DNA of 32,000 nt from Candidatus Thorarchaeota archaeon (GTDB taxonomy: Archaea > Asgardarchaeota > Heimdallarchaeia > Hodarchaeales > Hodarchaeaceae), in the NCBI GenBank assembly GCA_048882505.1, contig JBHLRO010000014.1, positions 66,154 to 98,153 of the forward strand, written 5' to 3'. Under the pieces are notes generated by a model. It searched no databases and was not told where the DNA came from. It worked only from the letters and a program-made list of their open reading frames with translations. Of the stretch, positions 2,810-18,258 are shown piece by piece. The translations under genes were made by a program, and so were the position numbers. Numbering within the stretch: the stretch's first letter is position 1; the number at the start of each line of letters is the position of its first letter.

Positions 2810-3004
2810 CTAATCAGCCATGGGAGGATTCGGTCCAGAGCCATTACCGCTGGCTGTGCCAACGGACAGGAAGAGTAAGACCAGCATTATTACCCAGGGT
2901 AATAGTTTCCAGAAAGCAATGCCTACATCGGGTGTTCTGTCTCGAAGTCTAAGTTTCTCTTTCATCATTTTCACCATTTTCAGTCTACTAGTGCGTCGTA
3001 ACAT
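2810..3004 (-). CDS. Small secreted or membrane peptide precursor (GPxPP family, copy 1)
   Basis: Basic N-region, hydrophobic LLPWVIMLVLLFLSV segment, then GTASG-NGSGPNPPMAD-stop. Resembles the ORF at 15731-15856. Start could be any of several ATGs. Confidence 0.6.
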   Translation of the reverse strand: MLRRTSRLKMVKMMKEKLRLRDRTPDVGIAFWKLLPWVIMLVLLFLSVGTASGNGSGPNPPMAD

Positions 3005-3082: not shown

Positions 3083-3109
3083 TTTAAATGTTTTGGAGAT
3101 CTCCTCTAG
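3083..3109 (+). promoter_or_regulatory. TATA-like TTTAAA (3083-3088) followed by the palindrome GGAGATCTCC (3095-3104)
   Basis: About 30 nt upstream of ATG 3118, which is therefore the preferred start of P2. Confidence 0.5.
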
Positions 3110-3117
3110 TGTTAAGC

Positions 3118-4563
3118 ATGTCTCCTTCCTCCCTTTTAACCGCATACTTGGAAAATAACCGACAAAAACAGGCTGGAGACTCGTCTACTCAGTTTATGCA
3201 AGAATGTCTTCTGGTTTGGGATTACATCCATGAAAAAGCACCTGAACTTTCGGTGTCCGATATCAAATCATTCTCACGATCGATCTATAAGACGTTGACG
3301 CTGCCGCTCTATGAGAAATTTTCCGCTCTAGATTTTTTGGAGAAACAGGAGGGATGGGTTAAAGAGTACGCCAGCTTGACGATCAATTGGGCTGACAGGG
3401 GTCGGATCATTTTCCCCCTCCGCTTGATTACTTATGAAGTGGTCAACCACCACAAACGCATCTTTGAGTTTTTCTTGCAAAAACTGCGAACAGGGGAGAT
3501 GGAGGCCACCGCCCAGAATTTATTTGAGTTCCTGTTTCCTAAATTGTTAAATATTCCCATCCCTCTGACCAATACGGATCTACTTATTCTCAAGGCTCTT
3601 CAACCGTTACAGGATCGAACTGTGGACTATTTAAAGGGCGTTCCAAATGAAGAACTCGCTGACTATTCAGGCAAATCCTTTCGGAACATTGTTCGACGCG
3701 TAGAATCCCTACGTTTCTGCCAGATTCATGTTCCCATCCATTTCTTGGATCTCGCGCAGCTAGGATATGAAACCTTCCTATTGTCCCACGATAGTCCTAT
3801 TCCTGCACAGCTTGCGGACTATACCCTGATGTCCACCGACCTTATGATTAGTACTTTTTCCATTGTGCAGATCCCAATTAAAAATAAGAAAATCTTCGTG
3901 GAATTTCAAGACCGACTCCAGCCCACCATCTTTCAACCGATGGCGGATCGGGCACTAAACTGGAATCTCACGGGATTACGAGCCGGAGACGACGGGTGGG
4001 AAGTCCCTCCGTCCTTCATCTATTGTGATCCCACCATAGATCTTACTGTACCATCGCCAGCGCTTGGTATGTCTGTATTACCGGAACTGGAGCGGTTTCG
4101 CTCGCTGACTGCCGCAGACATCAAAATACTGGAATTCTTGACCACAATGGGGAGTTTTACCACGAAGAAAAGGTTAAGTGACGCGGTCAAGGTCTCAACC
4201 AAAGAGGTCACCCAGCGTGTAACGGAGTACCAGTCCGAACGTCTGCTCCAGAAAGTCTACCAGTTCTATAACATCGGACTGGATCTAACCGTCTTCTTCT
4301 TCATTGCCAGCCCTCAGGATGTTGGAATTTCGTGGCTGAATCATTTTCTGACCTTTCCGAAAATGGACGTTTTTTCCAACACAGAGCCACCTACCTCATT
4401 CTATTTTGGGCATCTCAAACTTCCGCCGAAATGGTATAAAGATTTTACTCGAAAACTCAAACAGATCAAGCAGAAGTTTCCTACGGTCAAAATTTATTAT
4501 TCAGTGGAACCACCTCTAATGGCTAAGTGGAACCTGTCCCTGAAACAGACCTATGTGTCATAA
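3118..4563 (+). CDS. Tandem Lrp/AsnC-like wHTH regulator, paralog P2
   Basis: Two HTH-like segments (TNTDLLILKAL...EELADYSGKSFRNIVRRVESL...LDLAQLGY; TAADIKILEFL...KRLSDAVKVSTKEVTQRVTEY...NIGLD), each followed by an alpha/beta segment. The ORF track starts it at 3088. Confidence 0.85.
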   Translation: MSPSSLLTAYLENNRQKQAGDSSTQFMQECLLVWDYIHEKAPELSVSDIKSFSRSIYKTLTLPLYEKFSALDFLEKQEGWVKEYASLTINWADRGRIIFPLRLITYEVVNHHKRIFEFFLQKLRTGEMEATAQNLFEFLFPKLLNIPIPLTNTDLLILKALQPLQDRTVDYLKGVPNEELADYSGKSFRNIVRRVESLRFCQIHVPIHFLDLAQLGYETFLLSHDSPIPAQLADYTLMSTDLMISTFSIVQIPIKNKKIFVEFQDRLQPTIFQPMADRALNWNLTGLRAGDDGWEVPPSFIYCDPTIDLTVPSPALGMSVLPELERFRSLTAADIKILEFLTTMGSFTTKKRLSDAVKVSTKEVTQRVTEYQSERLLQKVYQFYNIGLDLTVFFFIASPQDVGISWLNHFLTFPKMDVFSNTEPPTSFYFGHLKLPPKWYKDFTRKLKQIKQKFPTVKIYYSVEPPLMAKWNLSLKQTYVS

Positions 4564-4831
4564 TGGAAACCAACTCCTCCATTTTGACGGACAAGCCACA
4601 CCCATCCACCACACTTGCCCACACTGTGCGCGGGCACCAGTGAAGTCGTTTTTTTTTGACCAAGATCTTAGCATCCTCTGGTTTCGAGGGTATTTGGAAG
4701 GAGGTATCGCAACTTTTTGCCATGATCGGGCAATTTTTGGCATGATTTCGAACCTTCGTGTTTTATTGTTGGAAAGTACCTGGAGGGGACTGACGAAGTT
4801 AGTTACTTGTCAGAGAAGGATATACTCGTGA
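4553..4831 (+). CDS. Small hypothetical protein with a CPHC motif
   Basis: Fills the gap between co-oriented genes with short overlaps at both ends; one CxxC only. Confidence 0.4.
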   Translation: MCHNGNQLLHFDGQATPIHHTCPHCARAPVKSFFFDQDLSILWFRGYLEGGIATFCHDRAIFGMISNLRVLLLESTWRGLTKLVTCQRRIYS

Positions 4832-5112
4832 CTCTCCTTACAAAGCAATTTGGGGTTACATATCCCTTAGAACACGTTTTTCAACTGATTTATCTTAGTG
4901 CGAACCTCTTTTCCTCATTTGAGGTGCAAGATGCCCTGGCTGAATTAAAATTGCAGGATCCTCATCGATATTCTCCCGAGGAGCACAAGATCGTGCTCCG
5001 TTACTTCCTGGATCTCATCGAGAATCTGACGGCTGAACGCCTCAATCTCATCCAAAATCCCACGGACGACCAATGCTATGTACTCGTCGGTTTCGCGGCA
5101 GGAGGCCCCTGA
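4807..5112 (+). CDS. Hypothetical protein, possible winged-helix fold
   Basis: Helical pattern ending in a beta-hairpin-like LNLIQNPTDDQCYVLVG; its TGA overlaps the next ATG (TGATG). Confidence 0.6.
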   Translation: MSEKDILVTLLTKQFGVTYPLEHVFQLIYLSANLFSSFEVQDALAELKLQDPHRYSPEEHKIVLRYFLDLIENLTAERLNLIQNPTDDQCYVLVGFAAGGP

Positions 5113-13761: not shown

Positions 13762-14571
13762 TCAAGCAGTTATCGTTTCCTCGATTAACAATTTTGAGAA
13801 TTGTTCACTTAATAAGCTTTTGTTGTGGTCTAGGAAATCTATTACAGCATTAGCAACATTTAAGATCTTTTCATCAAATGTAATAAATTGTACAGGTCTT
13901 TTACCAGAACAACAAAGCATAATACAACCTATTAGATGAAATCTGTCCTTTTTCCCAATATTTGGTGTGTTTTTCTGGAACAAGAAGAAAAAATTCTTGA
14001 AATCTATTGCCCATAACATGATACTATCTTTCACCCAACGTCGTACAAATTTGTGAGTAATAACATCAAAACTTACTACTGCATGAGAAGGGAGTCTATG
14101 CAAAAGCCTAAAGAACTCTCCACGGAGGCTAGGATTATTATAAACATTGGAGAATCCTTTCCCCCTCCATTCAAAGTAATGATAGATAGAATTAAAATGT
14201 GGATTAGATTTTATTTCATTAGATATCTCCCGAAAAACTTCGTTCTTATTTTCACCTTCCTCAATTCTTTTTTTTGCATTGAGAAGATAACGTCGTATCA
14301 ATAAACTAAATTCTTCAACTTTATGAGACACCATATCTGAGAATTCCCAACTAATTGTATCAAGGACAGCAATGAATTTATTCTTGGATGAATATTCATC
14401 TAGTAGTTTTAGAGATGCTTGCCCTAATCTTTGCTTATGAGAATCCTCACTTAATTCTTCTTCAAAGATTCGGGAAAACCAAATAGAAGTGTCTGGTATT
14501 GATTCTGTTGAACTTGAACCTGGGTGAGGAAAATCTAGAAAAATTATCTCTTCTTTTTTCACAACTCCCAA
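13762..14571 (-). CDS. PIN-domain ribonuclease-like protein with a large helical insertion
   Basis: PIN acidic motifs in the expected order: IPDTSIW, SWEF, GKKDRFHL, FITFDEKILNVA. Confidence 0.7.
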   Translation of the reverse strand: MGVVKKEEIIFLDFPHPGSSSTESIPDTSIWFSRIFEEELSEDSHKQRLGQASLKLLDEYSSKNKFIAVLDTISWEFSDMVSHKVEEFSLLIRRYLLNAKKRIEEGENKNEVFREISNEIKSNPHFNSIYHYFEWRGKGFSNVYNNPSLRGEFFRLLHRLPSHAVVSFDVITHKFVRRWVKDSIMLWAIDFKNFFFLFQKNTPNIGKKDRFHLIGCIMLCCSGKRPVQFITFDEKILNVANAVIDFLDHNKSLLSEQFSKLLIEETITA

Positions 14572-14581
14572 AGATATCTAC

Positions 14582-15298
14582 CTATCCAAAAAGGGCCTTT
14601 AGGACTTCTTGTTGAGGTTTTATTTCAGCTCTTATCTTTTCTTTCTTAGTGGGGAGAATGAGTGAATAGTTAGATACCGTATTTAGATCCCAATATAGGA
14701 GATCTTCCATTTGCTTTTTCTGGGCTTCATTTGCTTCCTCCCAATGTCTCCCTATTTCACTTAGTCTTAATAGAACGATTAGCATAGCGGTCAAAATATT
14801 TACTACTGAACCCAATTTTGTATGAGAACGTCTAACTGTGACTCTTTGTAAAGATTCTTTTACTTCATTTGAGACCTCCTGGAAATTTATAATCGCTTGA
14901 GAAAAAAGAAACAATAATTTATGACCATCTGATGAAAATTCGTTATCTAAATCTGCAAAGTAATGATTTAAGTCAACTTCTAGTTTTGCATAGGATTCAG
15001 AAAATCGTTCAAAAGATTCTTTCTTTTCTTGTCTCCAGCGATGATAGGCGATTGGATGCTTCCTTTCTAGATTTTGTAAATCTTTAGTAAATTTCCCTCT
15101 GAGTTCCTGTAATCGATCATCAATTTCCTGAAAAGCTCTGAATTTTATGTTCTCAGTTTCTTCTGCTATAAATTCATCTATCTTTTCTCGGAATTTCGTG
15201 TCTAATTTATTCAGTTCCTTTTCTTCAATGTCTTCATCTATCGATACTCTGTATTTGAATAGATCAAGGATTTTATCTTTAAATTCAGTTGGAAACAA
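14582..15298 (-). CDS. Acidic coiled-coil / helical protein, probable partner of the PIN protein
   Basis: Glu/Lys-rich helical sequence ending 10 nt upstream of the PIN gene in the same AT-rich block; TTG start with GGGGT upstream. Confidence 0.75.
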   Translation of the reverse strand: MFPTEFKDKILDLFKYRVSIDEDIEEKELNKLDTKFREKIDEFIAEETENIKFRAFQEIDDRLQELRGKFTKDLQNLERKHPIAYHRWRQEKKESFERFSESYAKLEVDLNHYFADLDNEFSSDGHKLLFLFSQAIINFQEVSNEVKESLQRVTVRRSHTKLGSVVNILTAMLIVLLRLSEIGRHWEEANEAQKKQMEDLLYWDLNTVSNYSLILPTKKEKIRAEIKPQQEVLKALFG

Positions 15299-15683
15299 TA
15301 ATCTTACCCCATAAATGTTAGATATAAGTACAACAAGTTTGCCAAACGCGAATCAGTTCTTTGGAATGAGTAATTCAACTATTAGATTCAATATGTTTAA
15401 ATGTTTTCAAATTTAAAATGACCCTGAAAGAGGCATCCTATACAAACCGAAATAGCAATGGAAAAAGGGATCCTCGCTCCAGATGATCAGGAGAATGGCT
15501 TGATCAAGACAAGGATGACGATTTCCTTATTGTCTTATTTTGCCTCCGTAGCCGCTGAGTTTCTCGAAAAGCCCTTAACCGTTTCTAAACCGGCGGACGT
15601 GTCTGGGAAAGCCTAGTACCGGTGTTTACATGACCTCACGAATCCATTCCTGCGGATCTTTATAAGTAATAAGACGGAGATCC

Positions 15684-15732
15684 AAAAAAATAAAACGGGG
15701 ACAGAGCTGGATCTGCGATCGATCGCCAGCTC
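15684..15732 (-). terminator. Hairpin (GAGCTGG...CCAGCTC with inner GCGATCGATCGC) followed by a T-tract
   Basis: Inverted repeat at 15704-15732 beginning at the peptide stop, then TTTTATTTTTTT on the minus strand. Confidence 0.6.
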
Positions 15733-15856
15733 AGCCTGTGCGGGGGGGAATGGGGCCACCCGCAGGATTGCCCGTGCTGGTCACAACGGCCACCAGCAGG
15801 ATTAGCAACCATACGGTAATCCCCACCAACTTATAACGGTTGATATGGAATTTCAT
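15731..15856 (-). CDS. Small secreted or membrane peptide precursor (GPxPP family, copy 2; 41 aa)
   Basis: Not in the ORF track. MKFHINRYKLVGITVWLLILLVAVVTSTGNPAGGPIPPRTG; strong RBS GAGGTGA 5 nt before the ATG; terminator after the stop. Confidence 0.75.
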   Translation of the reverse strand: MKFHINRYKLVGITVWLLILLVAVVTSTGNPAGGPIPPRTG

Positions 15857-16095
15857 GGAATTCACCTCTTCGAGGGGGCTGAATACGCCCACCTGACAAA
15901 GATCACCCCCTATCGGCCTGGGCCTTTAAAAAGGTGGAAACACGGGTCTCATTTCACGTATATAAAGCGGAGTGGCGTGAATTTGCAATTCACTGGAACT
16001 CTCCCCATTGTGGCTTGGTAATTCTGATCGGAATCAAGCCCCTTTAGATAGGTGAAATGAAGACCATAGGATGTAATTCGGTATCAGAAAAGGAA

Positions 16096-16389
16096 TTAAT
16101 CGTGTGCCTTTCGAGCCTGTACTTGGACAAACCGTTTGGTCTTCTCCTGTCTCGATCGTTCCGTCATTGTAATCAACGGAAACTGGGTTTGACAGTACTC
16201 CACGATAGTCAACAGGTTTACTGCCGTAGTATAATCGACATCAGGTGCTGGTTTCTGGGCAAAATCGGGAATGAGCAGATTAAAGTTGCCCGCGTCCATT
16301 TGTTCGTGAATATAATCGTTCATTGTTTCTAAAATTTTCATAGTCGGGCGCCGCTTCGCGGATTCATCAGGCACAGCAAAAGTCTCCAC
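16096..16389 (-). CDS. Hypothetical protein
   Basis: 97-aa ORF with protein-like composition, divergent from 16544. Confidence 0.5.
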   Translation of the reverse strand: METFAVPDESAKRRPTMKILETMNDYIHEQMDAGNFNLLIPDFAQKPAPDVDYTTAVNLLTIVEYCQTQFPLITMTERSRQEKTKRFVQVQARKAHD

Positions 16390-16543
16390 AAATCGTGATC
16401 TATGAGGTTTTTCCTCACCTCCTCTTTTTGTGTGTTTTGTTACTGATGAAATTTGGCTTATGGTGAGATTAATTAGTATTTAGTAAATTATGCTATATTT
16501 TAGATAATTTTATAAATACATCCTCACAGAGTGGAGGACGAAA

Positions 16544-17005
16544 ATGACCTCGCTCCTCAGTCCCCCAGCCAGCTTGAAAGAAACGCTGTTGCGTGAATTG
16601 CACGCCGTTAAAATTCGTCGTGCTATTTACGAAGCGGCGGCCTCACCCTCACACCCTCCAGCGTCAAAACGTCGGCCCTGTTGGGGAATCCCCTCCCCCA
16701 CCCGAAAAGGGGATATTGTCCGAAGTAGGGGCGAGCAAATCATCGCGGACTTCCTGTTTAAGCATCAGATCCCATATGAATACGAACCCCAGATCGCGTT
16801 AGGGGAACAGCGGCTCCATCCCGATTTCTATCTCCTCGGTGCAGACGTGTATATCGAGTACTGGGGAGTGACAGGGGATCCCTACTACGCGAAAAAAAAG
16901 GGGCAGAAATTGGCGCTCTATCAACAGTATTCGATCGCCGTCATCTCGTTATATCAAACCGATCTCCCCTACCTCGCATTGATTTTTGACGTGGACGGGA
17001 GTTAA
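16544..17005 (+). CDS. PD-(D/E)XK-type nuclease domain protein
   Basis: VRSRGEQIIADFLF...YEYE...HPDFYL...YIEYWG...KLALY pattern; GGAGG RBS and TTTATAAA upstream. Confidence 0.8.
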   Translation: MTSLLSPPASLKETLLRELHAVKIRRAIYEAAASPSHPPASKRRPCWGIPSPTRKGDIVRSRGEQIIADFLFKHQIPYEYEPQIALGEQRLHPDFYLLGADVYIEYWGVTGDPYYAKKKGQKLALYQQYSIAVISLYQTDLPYLALIFDVDGS

Positions 17006-17324
17006 GGGAGTGGCCTCTGTTCCAACCTCCTCAACTCGAACCCTGCTCCAAGAGGCCTTACGTGGTGCCCGTCGGAGACTGACAGCGTCCAGCCAAGGCA
17101 GCTGTGTTTTGATTTCAGGGGGTTCCTCGCTTTCGTGCTTGATTTGTAAATTCCCTATCCAGGATGAAGACCCCTCGCTGAGCTGCCCCGATTGCGGTCA
17201 ACCGTTTCATCGATCCCACCTCTTGGAGTGGTTGAAGGTGAAACGCCAGTGCCCAAAGTGCCGGACGGCGCTTCGGGTGTTTGGTTTCCCTACTCCCTTC
17301 GAGTCGGTGGATGTCGTAGGATAA
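16986..17324 (+). CDS. RING-finger protein (putative E3 ligase or zinc-binding module)
   Basis: CLIC-x12-CPDC-x4-HRSH-LLEWL-x4-CPKC with the conserved RING Trp. True start may be GTG 17011. Confidence 0.8.
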   Translation: MTWTGVKGVASVPTSSTRTLLQEALRGARRRLTASSQGSCVLISGGSSLSCLICKFPIQDEDPSLSCPDCGQPFHRSHLLEWLKVKRQCPKCRTALRVFGFPTPFESVDVVG

Positions 17325-17787: not shown

Positions 17788-18258
17788 TTAGGAGAACTCG
17801 GGATGCCACGTCCAGACCAACCCGGTATTGAGTACCACCAGGACTTGGGCGAGGGTACAGTTCAGACACAGGGCCCCAATGAGGAACAGTTCGATCCAGA
17901 TGAGGTTGACAATCGCCACACACATCATCGCATATTGGAGAATGAGGAACAGATACCATCGCTGCAACCACACTGGATTGATGCCGAGGGCGATCGAGGG
18001 CCGCGACGAGAACCCGCCCACTATCAGGGTCTGGATCAACACACCTGTGATGCCCACCGCCCCTAGCAATGAAATCGGGATCCCAAAAAGCGTCCCATAT
18101 TCCCGAAAGGCCTGAATCAACTCAGGGGTCGTCGTCCCACATCCACAGGCCCCCGCCAAATAGTCGAGGGTCTGTACTGTGAGGATCACAATCGCCAGGA
18201 GGGAACCCGCCGCGATCAACCCGAAACGCCATCTTCCCAAAGCCGGGGACACGCCCAT
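17788..18258 (-). CDS. Vitamin K epoxide reductase (VKOR) family membrane oxidoreductase
   Basis: Four TM helices, loop cysteines (ACGC), YGTLFGIPISLLG and active-site LCLNC; AAGGAG RBS. Confidence 0.85.
   Translation of the reverse strand: MGVSPALGRWRFGLIAAGSLLAIVILTVQTLDYLAGACGCGTTTPELIQAFREYGTLFGIPISLLGAVGITGVLIQTLIVGGFSSRPSIALGINPVWLQRWYLFLILQYAMMCVAIVNLIWIELFLIGALCLNCTLAQVLVVLNTGLVWTWHPEFS

Follow-up and report, generated by a model that had tools for sequence, protein, structure and literature searches.

An unannotated 41-codon gene in a Hodarchaeales genome encodes a predicted export-tagged mini-protein and is a candidate for peptide signalling

Introduction

In the Rgg/SHP, ComR/ComS, and other RRNPP cassettes of Firmicutes, a very small open reading frame (ORF) coding for a basic N-terminus and a hydrophobic segment adjoins, often divergently, the gene of a cytoplasmic DNA-binding regulator; the active part of the product is C-terminal, and many diversified pairs occur per genome (PMC7564271, PMC7595303). 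The Phr propeptides of the Rap-Phr system of Bacillus have about 40–50 amino acids, of which the first part is a Sec-type signal peptide and the C-terminal end supplies the short mature peptide, and short proline-containing C-terminal peptides behind a signal peptide are also found in the plant CLE (and IDA) precursors. The bacterial small membrane regulators MgrB and SafA have fewer than 50 residues and one hydrophobic helix, and such genes are often missed by annotation (PMC12648545).

The gene considered here, termed mini-gene in the following, resembles each of these systems in part. It lies in a stretch of 32,000 nucleotides (the window; contig C14, positions 66154–98153) of a 4.3-Mb genome in 83 contigs from the Hodarchaeales, an Asgard group that belongs to the known archaea most closely related to eukaryotes. 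An earlier note, made from the letters of the window, had described it as a hidden gene of 41 amino acids with its own ribosome-binding site and terminator, and had joined it with a second small ORF at 2810–3004 into a family of GPxPP peptides. A full-text literature search retrieved no paper on the family of mini-proteins of about 50 amino acids described below, nor on peptide pheromones or ribosomally made signalling peptides in archaea.

Results and Discussion

Reading frame and expression signals

The mini-gene occupies positions 15731–15856 of the minus strand and comprises 41 codons and a TGA stop, as defined by ORF scan, family profile matches, and dN/dS. Its frame is intact from the ATG (15856–15854) to the TGA (15733–15731) and translates into MKFHINRYKLVGITVWLLILLVAVVTSTGNPAGGPIPPRTG, and no longer ORF that could account for the region exists on either strand. 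The Shine-Dalgarno sequence GAGGTGA (15862–15868, minus strand; −12 to −6) precedes the ATG by 5 nt and is complementary to the 3′ end of the organism's own 16S rRNA (GGATCACCTCCT), in agreement with the proposed own ribosome-binding site; a GGTG is found at the same place in many family members. The TATA-like elements that had been reported near 15925 and 15960 were recovered as well. The TATA box TTTATATA (15966–15959, minus strand) is located 110 nt 5′ of the ATG, matching the range of −110 to −122 seen in most family members, and a second TATA-like element (TTCCACCTTTTTAAAGG; TTTAAA) is found at 15930–15925 on the same strand. Both are conserved in the two closest relatives of the mini-gene, a copy on contig C7 and the ortholog of the latter in genome G016.

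Downstream of the coding region, a hairpin (15736–15700) and a T4AT7 tract (15695–15684) together form a likely archaeal terminator (15684–15736, minus strand). Both parts of the terminator claimed in the earlier note are thus present, but the hairpin, with −17 kcal/mol, is not more stable than shuffled sequences (z −0.49). In archaea the termination signal that matters is the T-tract, and the C7 copy carries a T8CT5 tract about 55 nt past its stop codon. A possible 5′-UTR hairpin (UCUU[U/C]G ... CGAAGA; 15867–15902, minus strand) abuts the Shine-Dalgarno sequence, into which its 3′ arm runs, and could gate translation of the mini-gene. It is kept in the C7 and G016 copies and hence in all three orphan copies (also at L009:5225-5265 and L014:7175-7215), although one G-C to G-U change among n = 3 sequences constitutes weak evidence.

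These features may also be read as signs of a role on the RNA or translation level, with the mini-gene being a proline-rich leader on which aIF5A-dependent pausing at PIPP, adjacent to the stop codon, tunes either termination or a gene further downstream. Such a role would fit the stop codon, which falls into the 5′ arm of the hairpin in front of the T-tract, the PP or poly-Pro ends of many family members, and the possible conserved 5′-UTR hairpin at the Shine-Dalgarno sequence. It is nevertheless very improbable given that whole clades of the family lack PP (...AGPASTIID, ...AAGAVRSGVD), that the next gene on the same strand is 430 nt away and past the T-tract, and that conservation acts on the amino acid level while synonymous changes are tolerated.

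An Rfam search of positions 15300–16400 yielded nothing relevant. Contigs from three DNA runs of one sediment study are identical to the window and contain no variants. The protein is absent from the public protein collection and the gene is therefore unannotated. We regard it as very probable that the mini-gene is a real gene and a member of the family described in the following.

A family of genus-restricted mini-proteins

A whole-genome motif scan combined with tblastn revealed, besides the two ORFs in the window, a third copy on contig C7 (MKPKLREEATNLFSQLSWGNLIWLTVWLLILLVNVTQGMANPAGGPIPPRT) and weaker copies on contigs C1, C6, C13, and C5. The family thus has seven copies in this genome, which were recovered by profile search with E ≤ 6e-14 as compared to 0.13 for the next best hit, a gap that is partly circular since all seven copies were in the profile seed. 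A further candidate on C5 (31852–31980) was dismissed, as it sits inside an ORF of 1050 amino acids. Searches with the single sequence of the mini-gene retrieved the C7 paralog (E 2.5e-9) and its G016 ortholog (E 1.6e-8), and these matches indicate that the mini-gene is more than a chance ORF. The homologs among small ORFs for which the earlier note had suggested a search therefore exist. Within the genus, a profile of six copies was matched by small ORFs from 20 of 21 species, at 1–8 copies per genome; in 62 other genomes of the class it had no small-ORF match below 100 codons, and the few weak matches there were either inside longer frames or interrupted by an internal stop. When 1.84 billion proteins were queried with a profile of 27 copies, 38 cluster representatives were obtained at E ≤ 1e-3, nearly all of them with 43–55 amino acids. 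The family is restricted to the genus. With the seven paralogs as queries and E ≤ 10, NCBIfam returned no match and Pfam only a spurious prion-signal match, and look-alikes in the ESM Atlas were limited to unnamed clusters below 0.9.

As determined for 58 distinct members, the family proteins have an n-region of about 20 residues with a net charge of +4, often M-x-K-K-L-R-x-R, a hydrophobic core with a median length of 15.5 residues (13 in the C7 copy) that often begins with K-L-L-P-W, and a tail of about 15 residues that contains 21% Pro, 19% Gly, and 12% Ala and usually has a net charge of −1. In many members G-x-A directly precedes D/N-P. The mini-gene product has the basic n-region, the core of about 15 residues, the Gly/Pro/Ala-rich tail of 10–18 residues, and the total length of 41–55 amino acids that characterize the family, and its gene shares the TATA box about 110–120 nt 5′ of the ATG and the GGTG Shine-Dalgarno sequence. 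Within the family it belongs to a subfamily with the signature N-x-x-K-[IV]-[FL]-W-[IV]-T-x-W ... Q-G-x-A-[DN]-P-x-[GE]-G-P-x-P-P, whose members in the genomes G018, G020, and G003 are paired with a regulator gene (see below). The C7 and G016 copies matched these paired members in BLASTP with E-values of 1e-8 to 1e-9, and the motif N-R-x-K-[ILV]-x-[WG]-[IV]-T-x-W is common to the mini-gene and the subfamily. The short N-terminus of the mini-gene product is typical of this W-x-T-x-W subfamily. Because the N-termini of the paired members are equally short, and because the segment N-R-Y-K-L-V-G-I-T-V-W agrees with their consensus, the short N-terminus is not a truncation defect.

The sibling in the window (2813–2965, minus strand; 51 amino acids, MKEKLRLRDR...NGSGPNPPMAD) shares with the mini-gene the profile family, the three-part build, the long 5′-UTR with a distal TATA box, and the genus-restricted distribution. 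It differs in its long N-terminus MKEKLRLRDR, in its tail NGSGPNPPMAD, and in being arranged head-to-head with a regulator gene (3088–4563, plus strand). The homology between the two ORFs, which the earlier note had deduced from a parallel of their tails, is thus real and both fall into one profile family, but this family has seven members rather than two and GPxPP does not define it. Most members lack this motif and whole clades have the PP-free ends given above, so that an end three residues after PP is not a family-wide trait either. Of 127,033 frames, 9 had GPxPP near the C-terminus; 3 of these 9 were family members, and within the family the motif is confined to some clades. The family is best defined by its basic N-terminus, hydrophobic core, and variable Gly/Pro/Ala tail. 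In G020 (contigs C126, C97, and C234), 8 small-ORF copies are accompanied by clusters of regulator paralogs, several of which carry internal stop codons and thereby show local birth and death in the family.

Selection on the mini-gene

The tail of the mini-gene product is identical to the tails of the C7 and G016 copies (NPAGGPIPPRT) except for its last Gly. In the 11 tail codons, 7 synonymous and 0 non-synonymous differences separate the mini-gene from the C7 copy (dN 0, pS 0.70), and with about 30% of sites being synonymous we estimate the probability of 7 out of 7 changes being synonymous by chance at about 2e-4 (0.30^7). Since the tails have remained identical despite these changes, the peptide is under purifying selection. 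The dN/dS check that had been proposed in the earlier note gave 0.25/2.3 for the helix (TM) and tail together, with a dN of 0.43 for the helix. The respective values for the C7 and G016 orthologs are 0.124/0.361 overall and 0.045/0.296 for codons 21–51.

The synonymous divergence of the mini-gene and the C7 copy is saturated (dS about 2) as compared to 0.36 for the split from G016, and the duplication must therefore be old. The unit that can be aligned with the C7 and G016 copies encompasses the TATA box, the second TATA-like block, two 5′-UTR blocks (GTGATCTT; TCGAAGAG.TGA), the ORF, and the T-tract. That the start codon, Shine-Dalgarno sequence, frame, and TATA position have stayed intact after such an old duplication argues against a decaying copy. 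Nor is it at all likely that the mini-gene arose by recent duplication of the C7 transcription unit, lacks a function, and has not yet decayed in its variable, species-specific region. Its dS of about 2 makes it far older than the G016 split; the preserved expression signals and the whole tail with its strictly synonymous changes also speak against this explanation. Points on its side are the uniqueness of the locus to this genome (the 2-kb locus had no DNA match in 21 sister species), the mosaic base composition of the region, the lack of a partner gene nearby, and relics of regulators elsewhere in the window that attest to birth and death in the family.

The evidence indicates that the mini-gene is a functional and conserved coding gene under selection, whose product is built like an export-tagged mini-protein. 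The earlier note had seen the two ORFs of the window as variants of different specificity. While the mini-gene does differ in its tail from the gene at 2810–3004, it has the same tail as the C7 copy and would thus duplicate an existing specificity.

Predicted export and processing

The mini-gene product has an n-region of 9 residues (MKFHINRYK, charge +3), an h-region LVGITVWLLILLVAVV, and a polar c-region TSTG. The h- and c-region correspond to codons 10–29 (15770–15829, minus strand) and were delimited by the core and charge statistics of the family and the shared motif; the hydrophobic core has 16–17 residues. Codons 30–41 (15734–15769, minus strand) code for the predicted exposed or mature tail NPAGGPIPPRTG, with the proposed signal-peptidase site after T-S-T-G29. 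In terms of the three-part build of the family, the tail is STGNPAGGPIPPRTG. By inspection, the n-h-c tripartite arrangement, Ser at −3, Gly at −1, and Asn (Asn30) at +1 agree with a signal peptide, the cleavage site being placed by the −3/−1 rule only. This architecture is as expected for a 12-mer behind a cleavable export signal. Together, the positive-inside rule and the shortness of the core, with Ser and Gly in positions −3 and −1, suggest N-in/C-out insertion and probable signal-peptidase cleavage to NPAGGPIPPRTG. As separate steps, we consider export of the product in this topology to be likely, whereas its cleavage to a free peptide is close to a coin toss with a slight lean to the negative.

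If not cleaved, the product would be a single-pass N-in/C-out membrane mini-protein, whose basic N-terminus or helix modulates a partner and whose tail is a short external stub. The partner could be the double-Lrp regulator described below, which the mini-protein would tether or antagonize, or else a sensor or transporter in the membrane. Bacterial small membrane proteins such as MgrB and SafA act in this manner. The N-terminal and helix-start motifs are strongly conserved across the clades of the family, and M-x-K-K-L-R-x-R (in most clades) and K-L-L-P-W are more conserved than a disposable signal peptide would need. In addition, the uncharged stretch including the S/T/G flank reaches 20–25 residues in many members, and some paired loci carry kinases, response regulators, or an FtsX/MacB-type ABC system beside the small gene. 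However, the strictly hydrophobic core is short, and behind it lies a polar c-region whose −3 and −1 positions are occupied by small residues, as in cleaved signals, and the strongest purifying selection within the orphan pair acts on the tail and not on the helix. A stable membrane mini-protein is hence a serious alternative, even if it is on balance rather unlikely.

Double Lrp/AsnC-type regulators as usual partners

The small gene is accompanied in 26 of 30 loci by a gene coding for about 480 amino acids, which is located at a distance of 70–260 bp and usually in head-to-head orientation. This gene family is confined to Hodarchaeales-type genomes, where it is annotated as 'hypothetical' or 'Lrp family.' In the databases, the neighboring regulator's homologs bear the names Hodarchaeota, Hodarchaeales, and Heimdallarchaeota, which supports the placement of the genome in the Hodarchaeales. 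An AlphaFold2 model based on 35 homologs (pLDDT 90.2) comprises a helical N-domain and two modules of a winged helix-turn-helix (wHTH) and a beta-alpha-beta (RAM) fold each. In Foldseek the best match to this model was the fused Lrp-like siroheme decarboxylase NirDL (4czc, E 3e-7), followed by many Lrp/AsnC regulators, and the modelled fold thus identifies the partner as a double Lrp/AsnC-type regulator. The clades in a maximum-likelihood tree of 35 regulators match the tail types of the peptides, a congruence that is no proof of co-evolution since linkage alone predicts it. Repeats of the CTAGAGAA..ATCCGC type are present upstream in several paired clades, and the mini-gene has only a CTCCGC beside its TATA box; with the hexamer in 9 of 32 upstream regions versus about 3 expected, the enrichment is modest.

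Two kinds of additional genes were observed at paired loci. A protein of about 100 amino acids with the motif F-[ET]-[DS]-F-x-V-x-D and no Pfam match recurs beside several pairs (window 4807–5112, plus strand; C1:460583-460903, C6:57896-58297, C5:83762-84052, C13:11810-12088) and may be a third component of the module. On C1, the paired small gene is followed by genes (C1:461011-464924) that by sequence reading seem to code for a PadR/ArsR-type wHTH protein, a 941-amino-acid FtsX/MacB-type permease, and an ABC ATPase and that possibly represent a peptide export or immunity system.

The arrangement on C1, where the pair is followed by a PadR-like regulator and by the transporter and ATPase of a MacB/FtsX-type ABC system, as is seen with peptide immunity or export systems, would also be compatible with a secreted antagonistic peptide (archaeocin- or bacteriocin-like) or another effector that is controlled, but not sensed, by the double-Lrp regulators. 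The small size and predicted export of the peptides and their multi-copy, rapidly diversifying family add to this explanation, which is still improbable because the tails are short, neutral or acidic, and rich in Gly, Pro, and Ala, unlike cationic or amphipathic antimicrobial peptides, and because modification enzymes or immunity genes are not consistently linked to the small genes.

Genomic context of the mini-gene and a candidate regulator on C20

No regulator or relic of a regulator was found within 4 kb of the mini-gene (best tblastn E 0.1). Its nearest relatives, the C7 copy and the G016 ortholog, are likewise unpaired and located in a neighborhood that is syntenic and unrelated. The region around the mini-gene has a mosaic base composition. 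Just downstream of its terminator, two adjacent genes coding for proteins of 269 and 238 amino acids (13762–15298, minus strand) form a block with 34% GC versus a genome average of 41%; neither has a credible Pfam match, and the block is probably a separately acquired island. A RING-finger protein of 112 amino acids (16986–17324, plus strand; zf-RING_2, E 1e-6) and a VKOR-family membrane protein (17788–18258, minus strand) are encoded within 2.5 kb of the mini-gene. The RING domain counts among the eukaryote-like traits of Asgard genomes.

In the regulator tree, a regulator encoded on contig C20 (62970–64484) groups with 100/100 support with those regulators of G018, G020, and G003 that are paired with QGxADP.EGP.PP peptides. 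It has no intact small gene beside it, and its G016 ortholog (89% identity) is also alone. As the C20 regulator groups with paired regulators and yet stands alone, the peptide genes, of which this genome carries two of this type, and their probable regulator have become unlinked in this lineage. The C20 regulator is therefore a candidate partner of the mini-gene peptide on phylogenetic grounds, although it is doubtful that the peptide actually is a ligand of a C20-type regulator. A prediction of the complex of the C20 regulator and the 41-amino-acid protein, both supplied as alignments, scored 0.02 and 0.00 relative to a mark of 0.32 and counts neither way.

Two putative relics of a small gene near the C20 regulator were discarded. 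The downstream fragment 'RYKLIGPTFWL' showed no homology when the DNA was aligned and was treated as a chance resemblance, and an upstream ORF of 31 codons (MIHRDF...GIAENYISY) has not been preserved as an open frame in G016, where the locus is 89% identical. Its resemblance to the helix-coding part extends to about 17 of 20 nt, and it can be no more than a decayed relic. A scaffold gap of 100 N (L048:7534-7633; C20 about 64534–64633) lies immediately upstream of the C20 regulator, and about 80 bp including the start codon of the regulator are duplicated on both sides of it. Due to this duplication it seems that overlapping contig ends were joined here during assembly, and the true upstream region of the regulator is to be read without the duplicate.

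Proposed function

The family context suggests a functional link of the mini-gene to double-Lrp regulators, either as a sensed signal or as a controlled target. That the tail is identical in two unlinked and anciently diverged genes indicates that it is the selected part of the protein and that its function does not depend on an adjacent regulator. As the best explanation, to which we assign a probability of roughly 0.4, the mini-gene would be an orphan paralog that codes for an exported mini-protein, the released tail of which acts in trans on a double-Lrp regulator. In this scheme the positive N-terminus would stay inside the cell, the short hydrophobic core would serve as export signal, and the tail would be exposed outside, where signal peptidase would most likely cut behind TSTG and set it free as NPAGGPIPPRTG. 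The double-Lrp regulator of the matching clade, encoded on C20 (62970–64484), would then take the peptide as its cue, and the mini-gene would be a second producer of the same 'pherotype' as the C7 copy. The strong purifying selection on the tail in two unlinked genes favors this trans-acting peptide, and the unusually conserved N-terminal and helix-start motifs favor the stable membrane mini-protein, which is nearly as likely. The known ligands of Lrp/RAM domains are of amino acid size and not 11-mers, which counts against a peptide ligand, and linked genes include no peptide importer. That the mini-gene has no regulator beside it and that its locus is unique to this genome also count against the best explanation.

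In the widest form of the trans-acting peptide reading, which is clearly speculative and in our view rather improbable, the Hodarchaeales would communicate by diversified, Sec-exported Gly/Pro 'pherotypes' of 10–15 residues, each of which is read by a cognate tandem-Lrp factor, with the mini-gene and the C7 copy as unlinked producers of NPAGGPIPPRT(G) and the unlinked C20 regulator as its reader. If this is true, archaea would here have their first known system of signalling by ribosomal peptides, as far as literature searches show, and RAM domains would be a new receptor class for peptide pheromones. The multi-copy export-tagged family and its dedicated regulators would offer a testable entry to cell–cell or envelope signalling in the Hodarchaeales, and the mini-gene can be regarded as a credible candidate for peptide signalling in archaea. 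It also illustrates that gene callers miss members of the mini-protein family. The novelty rests with the family as a whole; what the mini-gene adds is the argument from an orphan gene with a duplicated pherotype and the naming of a candidate regulator on C20.

Comparison with known systems

The likeness to plant CLE peptides, which the earlier note had taken to be probably convergent, amounts to a coincidence of five residues (SGPNP) that occurs in the sibling only. The mini-gene has GGPIPP instead of the CLE core, its tail NPAGGPIPPRTG does not contain a CLE motif of 12–13 residues of the R-x-V-P-x-G-P-N/D-P-L-H-N type, and the family precursors do not have a long variable domain. Since only G-P...P recurs across the family, the likeness is ascribed to chance; apart from the spurious prion-signal match, Pfam returned nothing at E ≤ 10. 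The comparison with MgrB and SafA extends to size, the single hydrophobic helix, and the neglect by annotation, but there is no homology, the core of the mini-proteins is shorter and signal-like, and they are linked to a cytoplasmic Lrp-type regulator instead of a sensor kinase. The precursors of Rap-Phr are similar in length and layout; in contrast to this system, the mini-protein family has neither a Rap-like receptor nor homology to Phr, and its cleavage is deduced from the −3/−1 rule only.

The cassettes of the RRNPP type share with the mini-protein family the very small ORF, the basic N-terminus and hydrophobic segment, the adjoining regulator gene, and the multitude of diversified pairs. 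They differ in their receptors, which combine TPR with HTH (or phosphatase) domains, whereas the regulator in the Hodarchaeales is a tandem Lrp/AsnC protein (wHTH and RAM). The archaeal host and the Gly/Pro-rich rather than hydrophobic tails set the new family further apart, and no export, processing, or import components were identified for it. Orphan peptide or receptor genes, as represented here by the mini-gene, the C7 copy, and the C20 regulator, also occur in RRNPP-type systems.
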